From assembly GCF_045037415.1 (NCBI RefSeq), contig NZ_CP173438.1: a stretch of DNA of 64,000 nt. The stretch is one strand, 5' to 3'. The position numbers were made by a program, and so were the translations under genes. This DNA comes from Escherichia coli (GTDB lineage Bacteria > Pseudomonadota > Gammaproteobacteria > Enterobacterales > Enterobacteriaceae). The notes beneath the pieces were generated by a model that was not told where the DNA came from, did no database searches, and was given only the letters and a program-made list of their open reading frames with translations. Shown here piece after piece: positions 1 to 18,046 of the stretch (the stretch's first letter is position 1; each line of letters begins with the position of its first letter).

Positions 1-1
1 G

Positions 2-37
2 CTCACCACCAGCATTCGCGGGCTGGGGCTGGGCTGA
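2..37 (+). CDS. lfiP: 3' end of FliP-family export protein (Flag-2 LfiP), partial at window edge
   Basis: Open frame ending at TGA 35-37 immediately upstream of the FliQ-like gene; call rests on conserved fliP-fliQ-fliR order only, too short to judge by sequence. Confidence 0.3.
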   Translation, partial: LTTSIRGLGLG

Positions 38-39
38 TT

Positions 40-312
40 ATGTTGACCGTAGACGTCGCCGCCGACATTGTCGCCAGCGGCATTAAAGTAGTGATTTTGC
101 TGGTTTCGGTACTGGTGGTGCCAAGCCTGCTGGTCGGCCTGCTGGTGAGCGTGTTCCAGGCGGTGACGCAGATTAACGAACAGACCCTGAGCTTTTTGCC
201 AAGGCTGATTGTCACGCTGGTGGTGCTGGGCGTGTGCGGCAAATGGATGATTATCCAGTTGCATGATCTCTGCATTCACCTGTTTACCCAGGCCGCGTTG
301 CTGGTTCATTGA
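40..312 (+). CDS. lfiQ: FliQ-family flagellar export apparatus membrane protein (Flag-2 LfiQ)
   Basis: 90-aa hydrophobic ORF with FliQ-like core (SVFQAVTQINEQTLSFLPRLIV); precedes FliR/FlhB/FlhA homologues. Confidence 0.8.
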   Translation: MLTVDVAADIVASGIKVVILLVSVLVVPSLLVGLLVSVFQAVTQINEQTLSFLPRLIVTLVVLGVCGKWMIIQLHDLCIHLFTQAALLVH

Positions 313-313
313 G

Positions 314-1096
314 ATGCGCACAAGCGACGTTACGCAACTGATGGATCTGGCGCTGGGGCTGTGGTTTCCCTTCGTGCGCATTATGGCGTTTCTGCGCTAT
401 ATGCCGGTGCTGGATAACAGCGCCCTGACCGCGCGCGTGCGGATTATTTTGTCGCTGGCGCTGGCGATCATCATCACGCCGTTGATCCCCCATCCCATTC
501 CCCACAATCTGCTATCGCTCAACAGCCTGATCCTGACGGTGGAGCAAATTTTATGGGGCATGTTATTCGGGCTGATGTTTCAGTTTTTGTTTCTGGCGCT
601 ACAACTGGCCGGGCAAATTCTCTCGTTCAATATGGGGATGAGCATGGCGGTGATGAACGACCCGAGCAGCGGCGCATCGACCACCGTGCTGGCGGAGCTA
701 ATCAACGTCTACGCGATCCTGCTGTTTTTTGCCATGGACGGGCATCTGCTGCTGGTAAGCGTGTTGTACAAGGGCTTCACCTACTGGCCGATTGGCAACG
801 CCCTGCATCCGCAAACCCTGCGTACCATCGCGCTGGCCTTTAGCTGGGTGCTGGCGTCGGCATCGCTGCTGGCGCTGCCGACCACTTTTATCATGCTGAT
901 TGTGCAGGGCTGCTTTGGCTTGCTCAACCGTATTGCGCCGCCGCTGAACCTTTTTTCTCTTGGCTTTCCGATCAACATGCTGGCGGGGCTGGTCTGTTTT
1001 GCCACCCTGCTCTACAACCTGCCGGATCACTATCTGCATCTGGCGAATTTTGTCTTACAACAACTCGACGCGCTGAAAGGTCACTATGGCGGATAG
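314..1096 (+). CDS. lfiR: FliR-family flagellar export apparatus membrane protein (Flag-2 LfiR)
   Basis: Polytopic membrane ORF of FliR size; ATG at 314 two nt after the lfiQ stop (the ORF track starts upstream at 263); 11-nt overlap with the next gene. Confidence 0.8.
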   Translation: MRTSDVTQLMDLALGLWFPFVRIMAFLRYMPVLDNSALTARVRIILSLALAIIITPLIPHPIPHNLLSLNSLILTVEQILWGMLFGLMFQFLFLALQLAGQILSFNMGMSMAVMNDPSSGASTTVLAELINVYAILLFFAMDGHLLLVSVLYKGFTYWPIGNALHPQTLRTIALAFSWVLASASLLALPTTFIMLIVQGCFGLLNRIAPPLNLFSLGFPINMLAGLVCFATLLYNLPDHYLHLANFVLQQLDALKGHYGG

Positions 1097-2225
1097 CAGC
1101 AGCGAAGAAAAAACAGAGAAACCCTCGGCGCAAAAGCTGCGTAAAGCGCGTGAAGAGGGGCAACTGCCGCGCTCGAAGGATATGGGGCTGGCGGCGAGCC
1201 TGTTTGCGGCGTTTGTGGTGATCTCCAGCAGTTTTCCGTGGTATGCCGATTTTGTGCGCGAGAGCTTTATCAGCGTGCATCAGTATGCGCAGGAGATTAA
1301 TAACCCGCAGGTGATCGGCCAGTTTCTGCGCCATCACCTGTTAATTCTCGGCAAGTTTATCCTCACCTTGCTGCCGATGCCTGCTGCCGCGCTGCTCTCT
1401 TCGCTGGTGCCCGGCGGCTGGCTGTTTCTGCCAAAAAAAATCCTCCCGGATTTCAGCAAAATCAGTCCGTTAAAAGGCATTGGGCGGCTGTTTTCCAGTG
1501 AACATCTGGCGGAAACGGGAAAGATGACGGTGAAGTCTGTGGTGGTGCTGGTGATGCTGTGGGTAAGCCTGCGCAATAACTTTGCCGCCTTTCTCAGCCT
1601 GCAGGCGCTGCCGTTCAAACTGGCGATAAATGACGGTTTATCGCTCTACGCCAGCGTGATGCGCAACTTTGTCATTCTGTTTATCTTCTTCGCGCTTATC
1701 GACGTGCCGCTGGCGAAAGCCCTGTTCACCAAAGGGCTGAAGATGACCAAACAGGAGCTGAAAGAAGAGTACAAAAATCAGGAAGGTAAGCCGGAAGTGA
1801 AGGCGCGTGTGCGGCGACTGCAACGGCAACTGGCGATGGGGCAAATCCGCAAAGTGGTGCCGAAAGCCAACGTGGTGATCACCAACCCGACCCACTACGC
1901 CGTGGCGTTACAGTATGACCAGTCGCGCGCCGCCGCGCCGTTTGTGGTGGCAAAAGGCACCGATGAAATCGCCCTCTATATTCGCCAGGTCGCCACGGAG
2001 AATCAGGTGGAAGTGGTCGAGTTCCCGCGGCTGGCACGCTCGGTTTACTACACCACCCAGGTGAACCAGCAAATTCCGTTTCAGCTTTACCGGGCCATCG
2101 CCCACGTTCTGACCTACGTCCTGCAAATGAAACACTGGCGCGAGGGCGCACAGCCGCGCCCGGCCCTGAACAGACATATTTCCATTCCCAAAGAGGTGCT
2201 TAAACTGGATGGCGAAAACAACTAA
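1086..2225 (+). CDS. lfhB: FlhB-family export switch protein (Flag-2 LfhB)
   Basis: 379 aa; N-terminal KTEKPSAQKLRKAREEGQ and NPTH autocleavage motif (VVITNPTHYAVAL) typical of FlhB/SctU. Confidence 0.85.
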   Translation: MADSSSEEKTEKPSAQKLRKAREEGQLPRSKDMGLAASLFAAFVVISSSFPWYADFVRESFISVHQYAQEINNPQVIGQFLRHHLLILGKFILTLLPMPAAALLSSLVPGGWLFLPKKILPDFSKISPLKGIGRLFSSEHLAETGKMTVKSVVVLVMLWVSLRNNFAAFLSLQALPFKLAINDGLSLYASVMRNFVILFIFFALIDVPLAKALFTKGLKMTKQELKEEYKNQEGKPEVKARVRRLQRQLAMGQIRKVVPKANVVITNPTHYAVALQYDQSRAAAPFVVAKGTDEIALYIRQVATENQVEVVEFPRLARSVYYTTQVNQQIPFQLYRAIAHVLTYVLQMKHWREGAQPRPALNRHISIPKEVLKLDGENN

Positions 2226-4302
2226 ATCGTTCCTTGCGCTGCTGCGCGGCGGCAATCTCGGCGTGCCGCTGGTCATACTGTGTATTCTGGCGATGGTTAT
2301 TCTGCCGCTGCCGCCTGCGCTGCTGGATATTCTGTTCACCTTCAACATTGTGCTGGCGGTGATGGTACTGCTGGTGGCGGTGTCGGCGAAACGACCGCTG
2401 GAATTCAGCCTGTTCCCGACCATTTTGCTGATCACCACCTTAATGCGCCTGACGCTTAACGTCGCCTCTACGCGCGTGGTGCTGTTGCACGGGCATCTCG
2501 GCGCGGGCGCGGCGGGTAAGGTGATAGAGTCGTTTGGTCAGGTGGTGATCGGCGGCAACTTTGTCGTCGGTTTCGTGGTGTTTATCATCCTGATGATCAT
2601 CAACTTTATCGTCGTCACCAAAGGGGCCGAGCGTATTTCCGAGGTTTCTGCCCGCTTTACCCTGGACGCGATGCCCGGCAAACAGATGGCAATTGACGCC
2701 GATCTTAATGCCGGGTTGATCAACCAGGCACAGGCGCAGACCCGGCGCAAAGATGTTGCCAGCGAGGCCGATTTTTACGGCGCGATGGACGGGGCATCGA
2801 AGTTTGTGCGCGGGGATGCCATCGCCGGGATGATGATTCTGGCGATCAACCTGATCGGCGGCGTCTGTATTGGGATCTTCAAATACAACCTGAGCGCCGA
2901 TGCTGCCTTCCAGCAATATGTGTTGATGACCATCGGCGACGGCCTGGTGGCGCAGATCCCTTCCCTGCTGCTCTCCACCGCGGCGGCGATTATCGTCACC
3001 CGCGTCAGCGACAACGGCGATATCGCCCATGACGTGCGTAATCAGTTGCTGGCAAGCCCGTCGGTTCTCTACACCGCCACTGGAATTATGTTCGTGCTGG
3101 CGGTGGTGCCGGGAATGCCGCATTTCCCGTTCCTGATGTTCAGCGCCCTGCTTGGTTTTACCGGCTGGCGGATGAGCAAGCGCCCGCAAGCGGCGGAGGC
3201 GGAAGAGAAAAGCCTCGAAACGCTAACCCGTACGATGACAGAAACCAGCGAGCAACAGGTCAGTTGGGAAACTATTCCGCTGATCGAACCTATCAGTTTA
3301 AGCCTCGGCTACAAACTGGTGGCGCTGGTGGATAAAGCGCAGGGTAATCCGCTCACCCAGCGGATTCGCGGTGTACGGCAGGTGATATCCGACGGTAACG
3401 GAGTTCTGCTGCCGGAGATCCGTATTCGGGAAAACTTCCGCCTCAAGCCCAGCCAGTACGCCATTTTCATCAACGGCATTAAGGCTGATGAAGCGGATAT
3501 TCCGGCGGATAAACTGATGGCCCTGCCCTCCAGCGAAACCTACGGCGAGATTGACGGCGTACTGGGGAATGACCCGGCGTACGGGATGCCGGTCACCTGG
3601 ATTCAACCCGCGCAGAAAGCGAAGGCGCTGAATATGGGGTATCAGGTGATCGACAGCGCCAGCGTGATTGCCACCCATGTGAATAAGATTGTGCGCAGCT
3701 ATATTCCTGACCTCTTTAACTATGACGATATTACGCAGCTGCATAACCGTTTGTCGTCGATGGCACCGCGACTGGCGGAAGATTTGAGCGCGGCACTCAA
3801 TTACAGCCAGTTGCTGAAAGTGTACCGGGCGCTACTGACTGAAGGCGTTTCCCTGCGCGATATCGTCACCATCGCCACCGTGCTGGTCGCCAGTAGTGCG
3901 GTGACCAAAGATCATATTCTGCTGGCGGCAGATGTGCGCCTGGCGCTGCGGCGCAGCATTACCCATCCGTTCGTTCGCAAGCAGGAGCTGACGGTGTATA
4001 CGCTGAATAATGAGCTGGAAAATCTGCTGACCAACGTGGTGAATCAGGCGCAACAGGGCGGGAAAGTGATGCTTGATAGCGTGCCAGTGGACCCGAATAT
4101 GCTCAACCAGTTCCAGAGCACGATGCCTCAGGTGAAGGAGCAGATGAAAGCGGCGGGGAAAGATCCGGTGCTGCTGGTGCCGCCGCAACTGCGCCCCTTG
4201 CTGGCGCGCTACGCAAGGTTGTTTGCGCCGGGGCTGCATGTGCTGTCGTATAACGAAGTGCCGGATGAGCTGGAGTTGAAGATAATGGGGGCGTTGATGT
4301 AG
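2209..4302 (+). CDS. lfhA: FlhA-family export gate protein (Flag-2 LfhA), full length
   Basis: 697 aa with N-terminal TM domain and FlhA/SctV cytoplasmic domain; overlaps lfhB by 17 nt; lies beside rayT as in the described Flag-2 locus. Confidence 0.85.
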   Translation: MAKTTKSFLALLRGGNLGVPLVILCILAMVILPLPPALLDILFTFNIVLAVMVLLVAVSAKRPLEFSLFPTILLITTLMRLTLNVASTRVVLLHGHLGAGAAGKVIESFGQVVIGGNFVVGFVVFIILMIINFIVVTKGAERISEVSARFTLDAMPGKQMAIDADLNAGLINQAQAQTRRKDVASEADFYGAMDGASKFVRGDAIAGMMILAINLIGGVCIGIFKYNLSADAAFQQYVLMTIGDGLVAQIPSLLLSTAAAIIVTRVSDNGDIAHDVRNQLLASPSVLYTATGIMFVLAVVPGMPHFPFLMFSALLGFTGWRMSKRPQAAEAEEKSLETLTRTMTETSEQQVSWETIPLIEPISLSLGYKLVALVDKAQGNPLTQRIRGVRQVISDGNGVLLPEIRIRENFRLKPSQYAIFINGIKADEADIPADKLMALPSSETYGEIDGVLGNDPAYGMPVTWIQPAQKAKALNMGYQVIDSASVIATHVNKIVRSYIPDLFNYDDITQLHNRLSSMAPRLAEDLSAALNYSQLLKVYRALLTEGVSLRDIVTIATVLVASSAVTKDHILLAADVRLALRRSITHPFVRKQELTVYTLNNELENLLTNVVNQAQQGGKVMLDSVPVDPNMLNQFQSTMPQVKEQMKAAGKDPVLLVPPQLRPLLARYARLFAPGLHVLSYNEVPDELELKIMGALM

Positions 4303-4520
4303 GCATCCGGCATCGGTGCATATTGCCGGATGCGGCGTGAACGCCTTATCCGGCCTACGGGTGAGCACGGTTTTGTCGGCATGATAAGACGCGTAGCGGC
4401 GCATCTGGCACCGGTGCACAACTGCCGGATGCGGCGTGAACGCCTTATCCGGCCTACGGGTGAGCGCGGTTTTGTCGGCATGATAAGACGCATCTGCGTC
4501 GCATCAGGCATCGGCGCACA
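4303..4520. repeat. REP/BIME cluster (at least two GCCGGATGCGGCGTGAACGCCTTATCCGGCCTAC units plus inverted partners)
   Basis: Repeated palindromic REP consensus visible directly; located between the lfhA stop and the rayT 3' end. Confidence 0.85.
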
Positions 4521-4521
4521 G

Positions 4522-5019
4522 CTATAAAATGATACGCTCCCCAGCACTAAAATCCGTTACGTCCTCCGCCCAATCGATGGGATATAACCCTCGCGCGACA
4601 TCGCGATGAAACGTTGAGAATGGCCAATCACTCACTTGCTTTACCCAACCATGTTTTACTGGATTTATATAAATATAATCAACATGATGGCGATAGTCTT
4701 GGGTATTGCGAATGGCATGCTCCCAAAAACGCGGTTGCCAGATATTTTTCAATCCACAAGCATGGGTAAATTGCTTTTTAATTTCCCGCCAGCGCGAGGA
4801 AAAATCATCATCGCCTTCAGGTAATGTCCATATGCAATGCATATGCTCCGGCAAAACTACCCAAGCGTTAATTTCAAAAGGTCTGTCTCGCTTAACGTTA
4901 ATAATAGCGTTACGGAGCGTCTGAAACTGGGTGGTCAAAAGTTGGTTTCGACGATTCTGTAAATTTACCGTGAAAAACCAGGTTCCCCCCTTGATGTAAT
5001 AACGACGATATTCAGACAT
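4522..5019 (-). CDS. rayT: REP-associated tyrosine transposase (RAYT, IS200/IS605-like HUH protein)
   Basis: 165 aa with HUH-type HMH motif and conserved Tyr region (YIYINPVKHGWV); flanked on both sides by REP sequences. Confidence 0.85.
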   Translation of the reverse strand: MSEYRRYYIKGGTWFFTVNLQNRRNQLLTTQFQTLRNAIINVKRDRPFEINAWVVLPEHMHCIWTLPEGDDDFSSRWREIKKQFTHACGLKNIWQPRFWEHAIRNTQDYRHHVDYIYINPVKHGWVKQVSDWPFSTFHRDVARGLYPIDWAEDVTDFSAGERIIL

Positions 5020-5104
5020 AACGACTCCTTTTTCTCAACGGTAAGAAGAAAAGGAAAAGTCGGCAATGATGTTGTGTTAAATCGGGAAAGCGGCTCGCAA
5101 AAAA

Positions 5105-5198
5105 TGCACAGATTTATAGGCATGATAAGACGCGTAGCGTCGCATCAGGCACCGGTACACAACCGCCGGATGCGGCGTGAACGCCTTATCCGGCCTAC
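5105..5198. repeat. REP element(s) on the other flank of rayT
   Basis: GCATGATAAGACGCG...GCCGGATGCGGCGTGAACGCCTTATCCGGCCTAC; abuts and overlaps the yafL stop codon. Confidence 0.8.
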
Positions 5199-5953
5199 AA
5201 AATCGTCTCTTCCGTCAAAATCCGCCGCGCGCCCAAAAAATGATCCTGCCAGAAAGGTTCAGCTAACCGACTTACCCGAATGGTTTCCCCGGTGCGCGGT
5301 GACTCGATAAACTGACCGTCTCCAAGATATACGCCCATATGGTCGGCTATCTCACGGCTGTGGATATGGAAAAACAGCAAATCTCCCCGGCGCAGGTCGT
5401 TATTCGCCACAATCGTTGCCCGACGGTAGTGGTACATCTCATTGGCCGTGCGCGGGAGCTTAGCCTCAAGGATCTTGTTGTAGGCATAAAAAACCAACCC
5501 GCTACAGTCGAAACCTTTATCAGGCCGCGTGCCCCCCCAGACATAAGGCTTGCCAAGTTGCTGTTCCAGGCGGTGAATCGCCACTTCGGTGATGTTATGC
5601 AGGTGGTTGCTGCTGAGGAAATGATTGTTTTCCGCCAGCGCCTGCCAGCGTCTGTCGTTCGCCTTGAGCGGCGCAGGAAACCATTCTGGATGCTGTTTTA
5701 TCTGCTCCCGATTATGCTGGCGCAGCGCCCTTCTGCTTTTAGCATTGCCTTCCACAATATAGCTGGCCTGCTTTTTCAGATGGGTTTGGTACTGTTTTAA
5801 TAAACGCGCACGGTTTTGCATCCGCTGGCGGGCGGCGTAGCTAAAAGAGATATGTGATGTGGTGGCGCTGGCGAGTAAAGGGAGCAAAACGCATAACGAA
5901 AACACGCCTGGATGCAGAAATCTGCCGTGCAAGAACGAAGACATGAAGGACAT
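5195..5953 (-). CDS. yafL: NlpC/P60-family lipoprotein (peptidoglycan endopeptidase-like)
   Basis: 252-aa ORF with signal peptide and C-terminal NlpC/P60-like region (DCSGLVFYAY ... HMGVYLGDGQFIES); exact start uncertain. Confidence 0.75.
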   Translation of the reverse strand: MSFMSSFLHGRFLHPGVFSLCVLLPLLASATTSHISFSYAARQRMQNRARLLKQYQTHLKKQASYIVEGNAKSRRALRQHNREQIKQHPEWFPAPLKANDRRWQALAENNHFLSSNHLHNITEVAIHRLEQQLGKPYVWGGTRPDKGFDCSGLVFYAYNKILEAKLPRTANEMYHYRRATIVANNDLRRGDLLFFHIHSREIADHMGVYLGDGQFIESPRTGETIRVSRLAEPFWQDHFLGARRILTEETIL

Positions 5954-6255
5954 AAACCAGCTGAATGAAGGTGAGAATTTTAAAAGACCGGAGGAGTAAA
6001 CGGGATTATTAATTGCTTATTTGCATATTACTATTGCGGTTTCATAATCTTAGGAAATAAGAAATAAATCTACAATCCATGCGCTTTTCGGACTCTTGAA
6101 AACTGCACCTGTGCTAAATTTGTAAACCCTGCGCCGACAGGCTTGCGTAAAACTCTTTTGGTGATAATGTGAGCCTTCCAAATCCAGACTATTCCGATTT
6201 GGGATTCATTTTGCCGTCCTGGCGTGTGTAACCGTTTTATCAAGGAATAAGCAGT

Positions 6256-6996
6256 ATGCGTAAAATCGCATTAATTCTTGCGATGTTGTTGATCCCATGC
6301 GTTTCGTTTGCCGGTTTGCTGGGCAGCAGTAGCTCGACCACGCCAGTGAGCAAAGAGTATAAGCAGCAGTTGATGGGATCCCCTGTCTACATCCAGATCT
6401 TCAAGGAAGAACGTACGCTCGATCTCTACGTCAAAATGGGCGAGCAATATCAACTGCTCGACAGCTATAAAATCTGTAAATATTCCGGCGGCTTAGGGCC
6501 AAAACAGCGTCAGGGCGATTTCAAAAGCCCGGAAGGGTTTTATAGCGTCCAGCGTAATCAGTTAAAACCAGACAGCCGTTACTACAAAGCGATTAATATT
6601 GGATTCCCAAACGCCTATGACCGTGCGCATGGTTATGAAGGGAAATACCTGATGATTCACGGCGATTGTGTTTCCATCGGCTGCTACGCGATGACCAATC
6701 AGGGTATTGATGAGATCTTCCAGTTCGTTACTGGTGCGCTGGTGTTTGGTCAGCCGAGCGTGCAAGTGAGTATTTATCCGTTCCGCATGACCGACGCCAA
6801 TATGAAGCGCCATAAATATTCCAACTTTAAGGACTTCTGGGAGCAACTGAAGCCGGGCTACGACTACTTTGAGCAAACCCGTAAGCCACCGACCGTTTCT
6901 GTGGTCAATGGCCGTTACGTGGTCAGCAAGCCGTTAAGCCACGAAGTTGTGCAGCCACAACTGGCATCAAACTACACGCTCCCCGAGGCAAAATAA
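6256..6996 (+). CDS. yafK: L,D-transpeptidase-family periplasmic protein YafK
   Basis: 246 aa with signal peptide and YkuD-type motif ([12 protein letters not shown]); position between yafL and yafJ. Confidence 0.8.
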
Positions 6997-11870: not shown

Positions 11871-12641
11871 GTGCCTGGTTTGAAGATTACGCTTTTGCAG
11901 CAACCACTGGTGTGGATGGATGGTCCTGCCAACCTGCGCCATTTTGATCGTCAACTGGAAGGTATTACCGGGCGCGATGTGATCGTTCTACCGGAGATGT
12001 TTACCAGCGGCTTTGCCATGGAAGCGGCAGCTTCGTCGCTAGCACAAGATGACGTAGTGAACTGGATGACCGCTAAAGCGCAGCAGTGCAATGCGCTGAT
12101 TGCAGGCAGTGTTGCATTACAAACGGAGTCTGATTCGGTTAACCGCTTTTTGCTGGTTGAGCCGGGCGGCACGGTACATTTTTATGATAAGCGTCATCTG
12201 TTCCGCATGGCAGATGAGCATCTGCATTATAAAGCAGGCAATGAGCGAGTGATTGTGGAATGGCGCGGCTGGCGTATTTTACCGCTGGTGTGCTACGACT
12301 TACGTTTTCCGGTGTGGTCGCGCAATCTCAACGATTATGACCTCGCCATCTACGTTGCCAACTGGCCTGCACCGCGCTCTCTGCACTGGCAGGCATTACT
12401 GACAGCCCGCGCGATTGAGAATCAGGCGTATGTAGCGGGATGTAATCGCGTCGGCAGCGATGGCAACGGCTGCCATTATCGCGGTGACAGCCGGGTGATT
12501 AATCCACAAGGCGAGATTATCGCTACTGCCGACGCGCATCAGGCAACGCGCATTGATGCGGAGCTATCGATGATGGCATTGCGGGAATATAGAGAAAAGT
12601 TTCCGGCATGGCAGGATGCGGATGAGTTCACATTTCGTTAG
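11871..12641 (+). CDS. yafV: Nitrilase-superfamily omega-amidase / C-N hydrolase YafV
   Basis: 256 aa from a GTG start (MPGLKITLLQQ) with AAAGGA RBS; CN-hydrolase motifs (LPEMF, CYDLRFP). Confidence 0.85.
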   Translation: MPGLKITLLQQPLVWMDGPANLRHFDRQLEGITGRDVIVLPEMFTSGFAMEAAASSLAQDDVVNWMTAKAQQCNALIAGSVALQTESDSVNRFLLVEPGGTVHFYDKRHLFRMADEHLHYKAGNERVIVEWRGWRILPLVCYDLRFPVWSRNLNDYDLAIYVANWPAPRSLHWQALLTARAIENQAYVAGCNRVGSDGNGCHYRGDSRVINPQGEIIATADAHQATRIDAELSMMALREYREKFPAWQDADEFTFR

Positions 12642-12705
12642 AGGGTGAATATGGCTACGAGATAAGTTTCGTGGCTATTTTTCTCTGGAACTTAAACGAC
12701 GAAAT

Positions 12706-12727
12706 CCCGAATCAGTAATGATTCGGG
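12706..12727. terminator. Hairpin between yafV and tRNA-Asp (possible bidirectional terminator)
   Basis: CCCGAATC-AGTAAT-GATTCGGG perfect 8-bp stem with weak T tracts on both sides. Confidence 0.4.
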
Positions 12728-12739
12728 CTTTCTGAATAT

Positions 12740-12816
12740 TGGCGGAACGGACGGGACTCGAACCCGCGCCCCCCTGCGTGACAGGCAGGTATTCTAACCG
12801 ACTGAACTACCGCTCC
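12740..12816 (-). tRNA. aspV: tRNA-Asp (GUC), aspV-type copy with one variable-loop substitution
   Basis: 77-nt match to tRNA-Asp including CCA; differs from the copy at 20965-21041 only at 12769. Confidence 0.9.
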
Positions 12817-17198: not shown

Positions 17199-17969
17199 TT
17201 ATGCCGCTTTATGTGCTTCTAGCATGATGATATCACTGGTGAAAGAGCCATCATTCTGCAAGGCAAAATACGTTTTCACCTCTGTCGATGCGCTCTGTTG
17301 GTAAATGCGAATAGCGTCTACTAACGCTTCTGGCGTACGCATTCTCGCTACCCATGAAGAAAATTCCAGCGGTAACTTATCTGTAATTAAATTATCAACT
17401 ATCAGATTGGCTTCACTGATTAACGTCAACCACTCACCGCTGGCGTGGTTCCGTATGTGAGATGTATCGCGTAATGCTTCTACCGTCTGTAACCAGATGT
17501 CGCGCACTGGGTGACCCGGAGACATTACGTCCATCACAATCAGCAGACCACCGGGTTTCAATACCCGGTTCACTTCACGCAATGCTGCACCAACATCATG
17601 CCAATGATGGGCAGAATAACGGCTGATAACAATATCAAATGCGTTATCGGCAAATGGCAGGCTTTCGACATAACCCTGGCGGGTGGTGATATTTTTCAGT
17701 TGCCGGGCTTCGGCAGCTTGTGCCACGACATCCAGCATATGGGCAGATAAGTCATACGCCACCACCGTGCTCACGTTTTGCGCAGCGACAAAGCTGGCAT
17801 GCCCTGCTCCGCAGCCCATATCAAGTACACTTGCATCAGGATAATCAGCCAGACGCACCGCCAGACGCTGTAAATCTTGTCCGGATGCATGTACGGTACT
17901 GGTCAGATATTCGCTGGCTTGAGAGCTAAACTGCTTTTCTACGTGGTCATGGTGGGATTGTGTTGTCAT
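17199..17969 (-). CDS. yafE: Class I SAM-dependent methyltransferase YafE
   Basis: 256-aa ORF with SAM-binding motif I (VLDMGCGAGH); the true start may be internal. Confidence 0.75.
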   Translation of the reverse strand: MTTQSHHDHVEKQFSSQASEYLTSTVHASGQDLQRLAVRLADYPDASVLDMGCGAGHASFVAAQNVSTVVAYDLSAHMLDVVAQAAEARQLKNITTRQGYVESLPFADNAFDIVISRYSAHHWHDVGAALREVNRVLKPGGLLIVMDVMSPGHPVRDIWLQTVEALRDTSHIRNHASGEWLTLISEANLIVDNLITDKLPLEFSSWVARMRTPEALVDAIRIYQQSASTEVKTYFALQNDGSFTSDIIMLEAHKAA

Positions 17970-18046
17970 TGCGCTGTCCTTTTGTTATTTGAGTATAAAA
18001 GGGCAGCGCCAAACGTTGGTCTGCCCTGTGGCAGACCTGACATACC

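Follow-up and report, generated by a model that had tools for sequence, protein, structure and literature searches.

Export-gate genes of a Flag-2 lateral-type flagellar locus in an Escherichia coli chromosome of ST131-like background

Flag-2 is a secondary, lateral-type flagellar gene cluster of Escherichia coli, located between dinB and rayT. It was reportedly first described by Ren and co-workers in 2005 (J Bacteriol 187:1430), in the enteroaggregative strain 042. In the chromosome of that strain (NC_017626.1) the cluster spans positions 284,682–323,159. At the same site, and with the same rayT/yafL flank, E. coli K-12 retains only pseudogenes of lfhA (fhiA) and lafU (mbhA). The distribution of Flag-2 across the Enterobacterales was surveyed in 2020; the cluster was found in 24 of 100 E. 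coli strains (PMC6993521), which agrees with the genome counts given below. [quoted passage not shown] Clade C of ST131 carries Flag-2 (PMC4637896).

The stretch of DNA analysed here (the window; 64,000 nucleotides of an E. coli chromosome) carries Flag-2 export-gate genes at positions 1–4302. They contain no frameshifts and are tightly packed or overlapping on the + strand. This segment very probably comes from an intact Flag-2 locus in an ST131-type strain, in which it forms the distal part of lfiMNPQR-lfhBA. The features of the locus and its flank are as follows.

1–37, + strand: 3′ end of lfiP (FliP homologue), the last 11 codons and the stop codon
40–312, + strand: lfiQ (FliQ homologue, 90 aa), an open reading frame matching TIGR01402 and 042
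314–1096, + strand: lfiR (FliR homologue, 260 aa), an open reading frame matching TIGR01400 and 042
1086–2225, + strand: lfhB (FlhB homologue, 379 aa), with an NPTH autocleavage motif at residues 267–270
2209–4302, + strand: lfhA (FlhA homologue, 697 aa, full length), an open reading frame matching TIGR01398 and 042
2590–2601, no strand: Flag-2 deletion junction of K-12 and most other E. coli, inside lfhA (codon ~128–131)
4298–4520, no strand: REP/BIME array that closes the Flag-2 locus and parts lfhA from rayT
4522–5019, − strand: rayT, REP-associated tyrosine transposase (NF047646, 179 bits)
5195–5953, − strand: yafL, neighbour of rayT

The preliminary description of this DNA had listed a FliP-like 3′ end followed by full-length ORFs of the FliQ, FliR, FlhB and FlhA families, the third with an NPTH site; all five are in place, and the motif is found in LfhB. 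The ORFs had also been called overlapping. This holds for two of the three junctions between full-length genes (lfiR/lfhB by 11 nt, lfhB/lfhA by 17 nt), while lfiQ and lfiR are separated by 1 nt; the spacer between lfiP and lfiQ is 2 nt. The start of lfiR was set at ATG 314, following the RefSeq annotation of the identical sequence. The longest ORF would begin at 263, a start set aside because it implies a 50-nt overlap with lfiQ and because RefSeq prefers the ATG equivalent to 314. The lfiP fragment ends in LTTSIRGLGLG before the stop, the same C-terminus as in the 250-residue LfiP of 042 and of the near-identical genome NZ_OZ040963.1, and unlike that of K-12 FliP (...SLAQSFYS). The contiguous order lfiP′-lfiQ-lfiR-lfhB-lfhA on one strand is that of Flag-2 cluster 1, lfhAB-lfiRQP(NM), of which lfiN and lfiM fall past the edge of the window.

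Beyond lfhA, the direct-repeat families D1–D3 of the REP/BIME array contain GCCGGATGCGGCGTGAACGCCTTATCCGGCCTAC units, and a second repeat array lies on the other flank of rayT (5106–5198). The locus had been put forward as the main accessory content of the window. This stands for positions 1–55927, which are otherwise collinear with the K-12 core and were the part covered by the K-12 comparison; for 55928–64000, the counterpart in NZ_OZ040963.1 contains named housekeeping genes only.

The location beside rayT and yafL, where K-12 had been said to keep only lfhA and lafU remnants, is confirmed; these neighbours are common to K-12, 042 and EC958. A blastn comparison of the K-12 lfhA/lafU region with the intact locus gave two segments sharing 12 nt, and this overlap defines the junction at 2590–2601. 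The microhomology at this junction is imperfect (CTGTTGACAATC versus CTGATGATCATC). Approximately 38.1 kb are deleted in K-12, from lfhA codons 1 to ~130 through lafU codon ~52, and window positions 1 to ~2598 are absent from that strain. The K-12 lfhA remnant is the homologue of window ~2599–4302, with 94.4% identity, whereas the gene in the window is full-length. In other genomes, matches to the lfhA remnant begin at window position 2590 or 2599, and about three-quarters of E. coli have the locus deleted at one identical junction. Among 5,426 complete E. coli genomes, window 1–4600 is present (at least 80% of the query held) in 1,289.

The closest described relative at the protein level is the Flag-2 locus of 042, which resembles the window in its site beside rayT/yafL and in the order lfhA-lfhB-lfiR-lfiQ-lfiP. 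The four proteins have the same lengths as their 042 counterparts and are 100% (LfiQ), 98.5% (LfiR), 97.1% (LfhB) and 98.7% (LfhA) identical to them. The system had been introduced as a described rather than a new one, and it is indeed the Flag-2 already known from 042. Nucleotide identity is only 93.8–97.8%, which places the window in a different allele lineage. Further differences from 042 lie outside the window, in the near-identical ST131-type genomes: lfgC, frameshifted in 042, is intact; these genomes have no RelE/ParE-HTH pair between lafW and lafZ; and an additional ~3 kb of hypothetical ORFs separates the cytidylyltransferase gene from the glycosyltransferase gene. Between ST131-type and 042-type alleles, dN/dS is 0–0.09 at dS values of 0.07–0.26 for the four genes; all four have been under long-term purifying selection. 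Residues of functional interest are conserved as well. The LfhB NPTH motif aligns with that of K-12 FlhB at residue 268, and LfhA R142, R149, D153, K198, D203 and D244 align with K-12 FlhA R147, R154, D158, K203, D208 and D249, all of them conserved. The importance of charged residues in FlhA is known from work on the Salmonella protein.

Scans of window 1–6300 for sigma-70-like and terminator-like sites gave numbers not above those in shuffled sequences. In a related genome, a search with the sigma-54 consensus located perfect matches ahead of the lfgB and lafB operons, beside an intact lafK; upstream of lfiM in that genome the same search found none, and a relaxed scan there gave nothing convincing either. 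The lfiM-lfhA run is probably co-transcribed, from a putative promoter that would lie ahead of lfiM and thus beyond the window. The preliminary description had left expression as unknown, and this can now be updated from published work: in EC958, whose LfhA is identical to that of the window and whose lfgC is intact, LafA was not detected and no Flag-2-dependent motility was seen at 28 or 37 °C, in broth or in soft agar, and a fliC mutant was non-motile (PMC4637896). In view of these negative laboratory tests, the intact Flag-2 of the ST131 type is apparently silent, or induced only by some signal.

A locus that is intact in sequence could also be a silent relic, unused by the cell and in the course of being lost, whose frames are open because of recent acquisition or recombination and not because selection now maintains them. 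The EC958 results would fit, as would the deletion shared by most E. coli, the frameshift in 042 lfgC and the lack of a recognisable promoter upstream of lfiM. Against this stand the low dN/dS values over appreciable synonymous divergence, the retention of every key residue, the open state of 39 out of 39 genes in the closest genomes, and the perfect sigma-54 sites before the lfgB and lafB operons with intact lafK adjoining; moreover, the literature tested few growth conditions. The relic reading is considered less likely than not, with an appreciable probability. An intact and selectively maintained gate may switch on only under other conditions (for instance in a highly viscous medium, in contact with a surface or in a niche of the host), where it would build lateral flagella or secrete protein. 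It would thereby help ST131 clade C to succeed, a clade statistically associated with Flag-2; this is a speculative proposal, and improbable as it stands.

By nucleotide identity, the strain appears to have an ST131-like background. Window 1–33437 is 99.96% identical to EC958, and NZ_OZ040963.1 is 99.97% identical to the window over 54.4 kb. The ISEc23 insertion in yaeF of EC958 is missing from the window, so the strain is a sister isolate and not EC958 itself. LfhB, LfiR and LfiQ of the window are 100% identical to those of NZ_OZ040963.1, and the RefSeq protein accessions of EC958 LfhB, LfiR, LfiQ and LfiP are the same as in that genome. Both genomes contain a complete 39-gene Flag-2 upstream, running from lafU to lfhA, in which no gene is flagged as a pseudogene (annotated in NZ_OZ040963.1 as 14 + 14 + 11 genes). 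The strain had been credited with at least the export-gate end of Flag-2, which is supported, and the rest had been presumed to lie past position 1. The whole locus is indeed found in these genomes, 99.96–99.97% identical over 33–54 kb, and the remainder of the cluster would be expected beyond position 1 here too, as the window starts inside lfiP.

It is nevertheless conceivable that only the export-gate end survives, as orphan remnants of a cluster cut by an insertion sequence, a prophage or a partial deletion shortly past position 1. The window does stop inside lfiP, and De Maayer et al. (PMC6993521) found that 22% of flag-2-bearing Enterobacterales are missing one or more of the conserved genes, transposition being a frequent cause. 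An IS1397 insertion is present inside the matched stretch of the near-identical genome DP033, and the half of the locus from lafU to the glycosyltransferase gene is held, at 80% or more of the query, in only 1,118 of the 5,426 genomes. Part of this shortfall may stem from variability of the cargo region and not from loss. A truncation immediately beyond lfiP had been named as a point to check; the 9.2 kb directly upstream are present (at least 80% of the query) in 1,271 of the 5,426 genomes, compared with 1,289 for the window segment, an agreement of ~99% if the sets are nested. Together with the intact locus in the two closest relatives examined, this makes a truncated cluster very unlikely, and the preferred reading remains that of an intact Flag-2.

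The genes belong to the flagellar rather than the injectisome branch. For each protein the best model is the NCBIfam flagellar FliQ, FliR, FlhB or FlhA equivalog, with E-values from 1e-22 to 3.5e-233, well outside what chance would give. LfiR scores 176.9 bits with TIGR01400 fliR (cut-off 168.6) and LfhA 775.8 bits with TIGR01398 FlhA (cut-off 772.1). LfiQ (TIGR01402 fliQ, 79.6 bits, curated cut-off 88.9) and LfhB (TIGR00328 flhB, 345 bits, cut-off 349.25) fall slightly under the equivalog cut-offs, as expected for a divergent paralogous system, although this keeps the two from being clear-cut matches. The Sct models scored 45.1 (SctS, LfiQ), 97.9, 273.4 (SctU, LfhB) and 581.5 bits (SctV, LfhA; cut-off 692), in every case under their own cut-off and under the flagellar model. 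Identity to the K-12 primary proteins is 34.8% (LfiQ/FliQ), 32.7% (LfiR/FliR), 37.9% (LfhB/FlhB) and 44.9% (LfhA/FlhA), and the primary genes of K-12 map elsewhere (flhBA at 1.96 Mb, fliPQR at 2.02 Mb). LfhA aligns with the lateral FlhA of Vibrio parahaemolyticus (PDB 7AMY) at 889.8 bits, compared with 577.7 bits for primary-type FlhA and 365 bits for the best injectisome protein, Yersinia SctV (7ALW). In this comparison, which was made for FlhA, LfhA is clearly nearer to the lateral than to the primary type. Kinship to Flag-2 or lateral systems had been named as a further check, and the 97.1–100% identity to 042 versus 33–45% to the K-12 primary proteins answers it in favour of Flag-2. An origin from the primary flagellum (Flag-1) or a virulence injectisome such as ETT2, which might be entertained since type III export-gate proteins are all homologous and the SctS/T/U/V models also match, is refuted by the identities, the model scores and the 7ALW comparison, and by the separate chromosomal sites of the primary genes, and has next to no chance of being correct.

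By homology to Salmonella and Vibrio proteins, the products of this Flag-2 segment may be assigned roles in a type III export gate. LfiP, LfiQ and LfiR would form its helical core. LfhB would attach to this core and, through autocleavage between N267 and P268 of the NPTH motif, would switch the substrate specificity of export. The ion-driven export engine and the cytoplasmic docking platform for chaperone–substrate complexes would both be provided by a ring of LfhA.

Flag-2 export genes of this kind are already known, and the finding is correct but ordinary. Its value is one of annotation: the strain, with its ST131-like background, is among the ~24% of E. coli that retain an ancestral second flagellar locus. 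The puzzle it adds to is that a 40-kb, 39-gene machine stays under purifying selection, yet is not known to have been seen expressed in E. coli.

Two other systems provide the framework for comparison. Flag-2 has been described as resembling the lateral systems of Vibrio and Aeromonas (PMC4637896, PMC6993521), and LfhA is 60.1% identical to the V. parahaemolyticus lateral FlhA over 681 aligned residues. The Vibrio and Aeromonas lateral system is expressed on surfaces and drives swarming, whereas for E. coli Flag-2 neither filaments nor motility have been demonstrated (PMC4637896). The Flag-1 gate of E. coli and Salmonella, FliPQR-FlhB-FlhA, has the same protein families and lengths, the same NPTH motif and the same FlhA charged cluster, and presumably works by the same mechanism. 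In the related genomes fliO is not annotated between lfiN and lfiP. Flag-1 and Flag-2 are nevertheless paralogous and occupy different loci, and the genes of Flag-2 are all gathered in a single cluster.

At its start, the window carries the end of lfiP and four open reading frames, followed by rayT and yafL:

2-37, + strand: 3′ end of lfiP, translated as LTTSIRGLGLG and then a stop
40-312, + strand: lfiQ, open reading frame of 90 aa (six-frame list)
263/314-1096, + strand: lfiR, open reading frame of 277 or 260 aa, depending on the start (six-frame list)
1086-2225, + strand: lfhB, open reading frame of 379 aa, with NPTH at residues 267-270
2209-4302, + strand: lfhA, open reading frame of 697 aa (six-frame list)
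4298-4520: REP/BIME array between lfhA and rayT
4522-5019, − strand: rayT, downstream of the REP/BIME array
5106-5198: second REP array, on the other side of rayT
5195-5953, − strand: yafL, after the second REP array

The preliminary description had placed a FliP end, FliQ, FliR, FlhB and FlhA open reading frames and an NPTH motif in 1-4302, and the list of open reading frames and the NCBIfam models agree with it in every particular. The terminal peptide LTTSIRGLGLG exactly matches the C-terminus of the Flag-2 FliP homologue (250 aa) in E. coli 042, the strain in which Flag-2 was first described, and in the related genome NZ_OZ040963.1; K-12 FliP differs. The genes are tightly packed, with gaps of 2 nt (lfiP/lfiQ) and 1 nt (lfiQ/lfiR, annotated start) and overlaps of 11 nt (lfiR/lfhB) and 17 nt (lfhB/lfhA); this packing suggests that they may be co-transcribed and translationally coupled with upstream lfiMNP. 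The REP/BIME arrays on both flanks of rayT contain copies that are 91-99% alike, a typical RayT 'REPtron' layout. DP033 (NZ_CP096110.2), 100% identical over the rayT/REP stretch, has an IS1397-family insertion somewhere in the matched stretch.

The NCBIfam flagellar equivalogs score 79.6 (FliQ), 176.9 (FliR), 345 (FlhB) and 775.8 bits (FlhA), and the injectisome models are much weaker (SctS 45.1, SctT 97.9, SctU 273.4, SctV 581.5 bits). FliQ and FlhB score slightly under the curated thresholds of their flagellar models, as is expected of a divergent paralogous set. Identity to the 042 Flag-2 proteins is 100% for LfiQ, 98.5% for LfiR, 97.1% for LfhB and 98.7% for LfhA; identity to the K-12 primary proteins is only 34.8% (FliQ), 32.7% (FliR), 37.9% (FlhB) and 44.9% (FlhA). 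Lateral and primary homologues were compared for FlhA alone of the four proteins. Among solved structures, the top match of LfhA is the lateral FlhA of Vibrio parahaemolyticus (PDB 7AMY; 889.8 bits, 60.1% identity over 681 residues), versus 577.7 bits for a primary-type FlhA structure and 365 bits for Yersinia SctV. Since the best matches are neither primary flagellar nor virulence type III secretion proteins, window 1-4302 is, on sequence grounds, assigned to Flag-2 or lateral-type export-gate genes, and the earlier Flag-2 reading holds. Every defining feature of Flag-2 that can be tested within the window was found.

Judged by homology and by what is established for export in Salmonella and Vibrio, LfiP, LfiQ and LfiR would form the helical core channel of the export gate, with LfhB wrapping the cytoplasmic face of this core. 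Autocleavage of LfhB at Asn-Pro of NPTH would play a part in the rod/hook-to-filament substrate switch, and a nonameric LfhA ring would serve as ion-driven engine and docking platform. Support for this mechanism comes from the NPTH motif, from LfhA, which keeps all residues matching R147, R154, D158, K203, D208 and D249 of primary FlhA, and from low dN/dS. The four genes differ from their 042 alleles at 2.2-6.2% of nucleotides (dS 0.07-0.26, dN/dS 0-0.09); because these differences are nearly all synonymous, the comparison indicates long-term purifying selection.

The window itself begins inside lfiP; its source genome very probably carries a complete Flag-2 locus. The window is 99.97% identical to NZ_OZ040963.1 over 54.4 kb and 99.96% identical to the ST131 strain EC958 over 33.4 kb, with identical LfhA. 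In NZ_OZ040963.1, the entire locus is annotated with zero pseudogene flags, in the order lafU, lafT, lafS, lafF, lafE, lafD, lafC, lafB, lafA, lafZ, lafW, lfgL-lfgA, lfgM, lfgN, a variable glycosyltransferase region, lfiJ-lfiE, lafK, lfiM, lfiN, lfiP, lfiQ, lfiR, lfhB, lfhA, with dinB at the far end. Among 5,426 complete E. coli genomes, with presence defined as at least 80% of the query segment, window 1-4600 is found in 1,289 (23.8%), the 9.2 kb directly upstream in 1,271 and the lafU-to-glycosyltransferase half in 1,118. The first figure agrees with De Maayer et al. (PMC6993521), who reported the locus in 24 of 100 E. coli strains.

A promoter scan of window 1-6300 gave nothing above chance, and a search for the sigma-54 consensus upstream of lfiM in NZ_OZ040963.1 found no site; that intergenic region holds a REP-like palindrome instead. 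On the − strand, perfect sigma-54 consensus sequences (TGGCAC-N5-TTGC) directly precede the lafB (fliD-like) and lfgB operons in NZ_OZ040963.1 (12427-12441 and 25366-25380 of L001, its stretch with the intact locus). In EC958, western blots detected no LafA, either in broth or in soft agar and at either 28 or 37 °C, and a fliC mutant was non-motile (PMC4637896); the system is therefore intact and conserved, and silent under the conditions tried.

In K-12, this site holds two pseudogenes, lfhA and lafU, flanked by rayT and dinB. The alignment of K-12 with the intact locus gives two collinear blocks with a 12-nt overlap, joining lafU codon ~52 to lfhA codon ~128-131 (window 2590-2601) at an imperfect microhomology (CTGTTGACAATC versus CTGATGATCATC); the deletion is ~38.1 kb. 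Because the junction falls there, K-12 is without window 1-~2598, and 2599-4302 is the counterpart of its lfhA remnant. Among the matches listed, all 22 of 22 remnant-only genomes share an identical breakpoint (query 2590 or 2599), in agreement with the published view of one ancestral Flag-2 deletion (PMC6993521).

With the exception of 1-2598, window 1-55927 matches the K-12 core collinearly at ~97-98% identity; the last 8 kb, outside the K-12 stretches compared, correspond in NZ_OZ040963.1 to the run from ispC to dapD, all of them named housekeeping genes. Flag-2 is thus the main accessory content, as had been proposed from the sequence alone.

Identity to K-12 and to 042 alike is only 92-94% in window 2599-5872 (lfhA 3′ part, rayT, yafL), with neighbouring dpaA and yafJ at ~98% and fadE at 97%. 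By this measure the stretch is a hyper-divergent block at the Flag-2 edge, consistent with published descriptions of the flag-2 region as a hotspot of recombination in ST131 (PMC4637896). The dinJ-yafQ toxin-antitoxin pair, between yafL and dpaA (yafK) in K-12, is absent at 5873-6115, leaving ~300 bp of intergenic sequence, and likewise from 042, EC958 and NZ_OZ040963.1. The tRNA-Asp (aspV) site beside yafV (~12629-12816) is empty, with no island; in K-12 the interval from aspV to yafV is occupied by yafT-ykfM-yafU-yafF, and in 042 yafV is flanked by a type VI secretion island with ISAs1 and group II intron remnants. A short segment without K-12 match (17807-18002) lies at the start of the yafE-like methyltransferase gene, which is annotated at 771 nt in the near-identical genome versus 624 nt for K-12 yafE. 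Outside the window, NZ_OZ040963.1 lacks the yafN-yafO pair that K-12 carries between dinB and yafP (L001 4701-6205); 042 yafO has an internal stop.

The Flag-2 locus here is already known, not new: a member of the Flag-2 family with an allele typical of ST131. Flag-2 has been reported among the variable regions of EC958 (PMC3203889), and an association of the locus with clade C of ST131 has also been reported (PMC6479005). The EC958 and 042 loci share about 94% nucleotide identity, and lfgC is intact in EC958 and frameshifted in 042 (PMC4637896); the 042 frameshift was confirmed in this analysis. In 042, the glycosyltransferase and cytidylyltransferase genes are adjacent, whereas ~3 kb separate them in the ST131 type (L001 30493-33400, NZ_OZ040963.1), comprising three short hypothetical open reading frames and an unannotated gap of ~1 kb. 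The RelE/ParE-HTH pair between lafW and lafZ in 042 is missing from the ST131 type. In EC958, an ISEc23 (IS66-family) insertion truncates yaeF (window ~33438); the gene is intact, without ISEc23, in the window and intact in NZ_OZ040963.1, and the window therefore comes from a sister isolate rather than EC958 itself.
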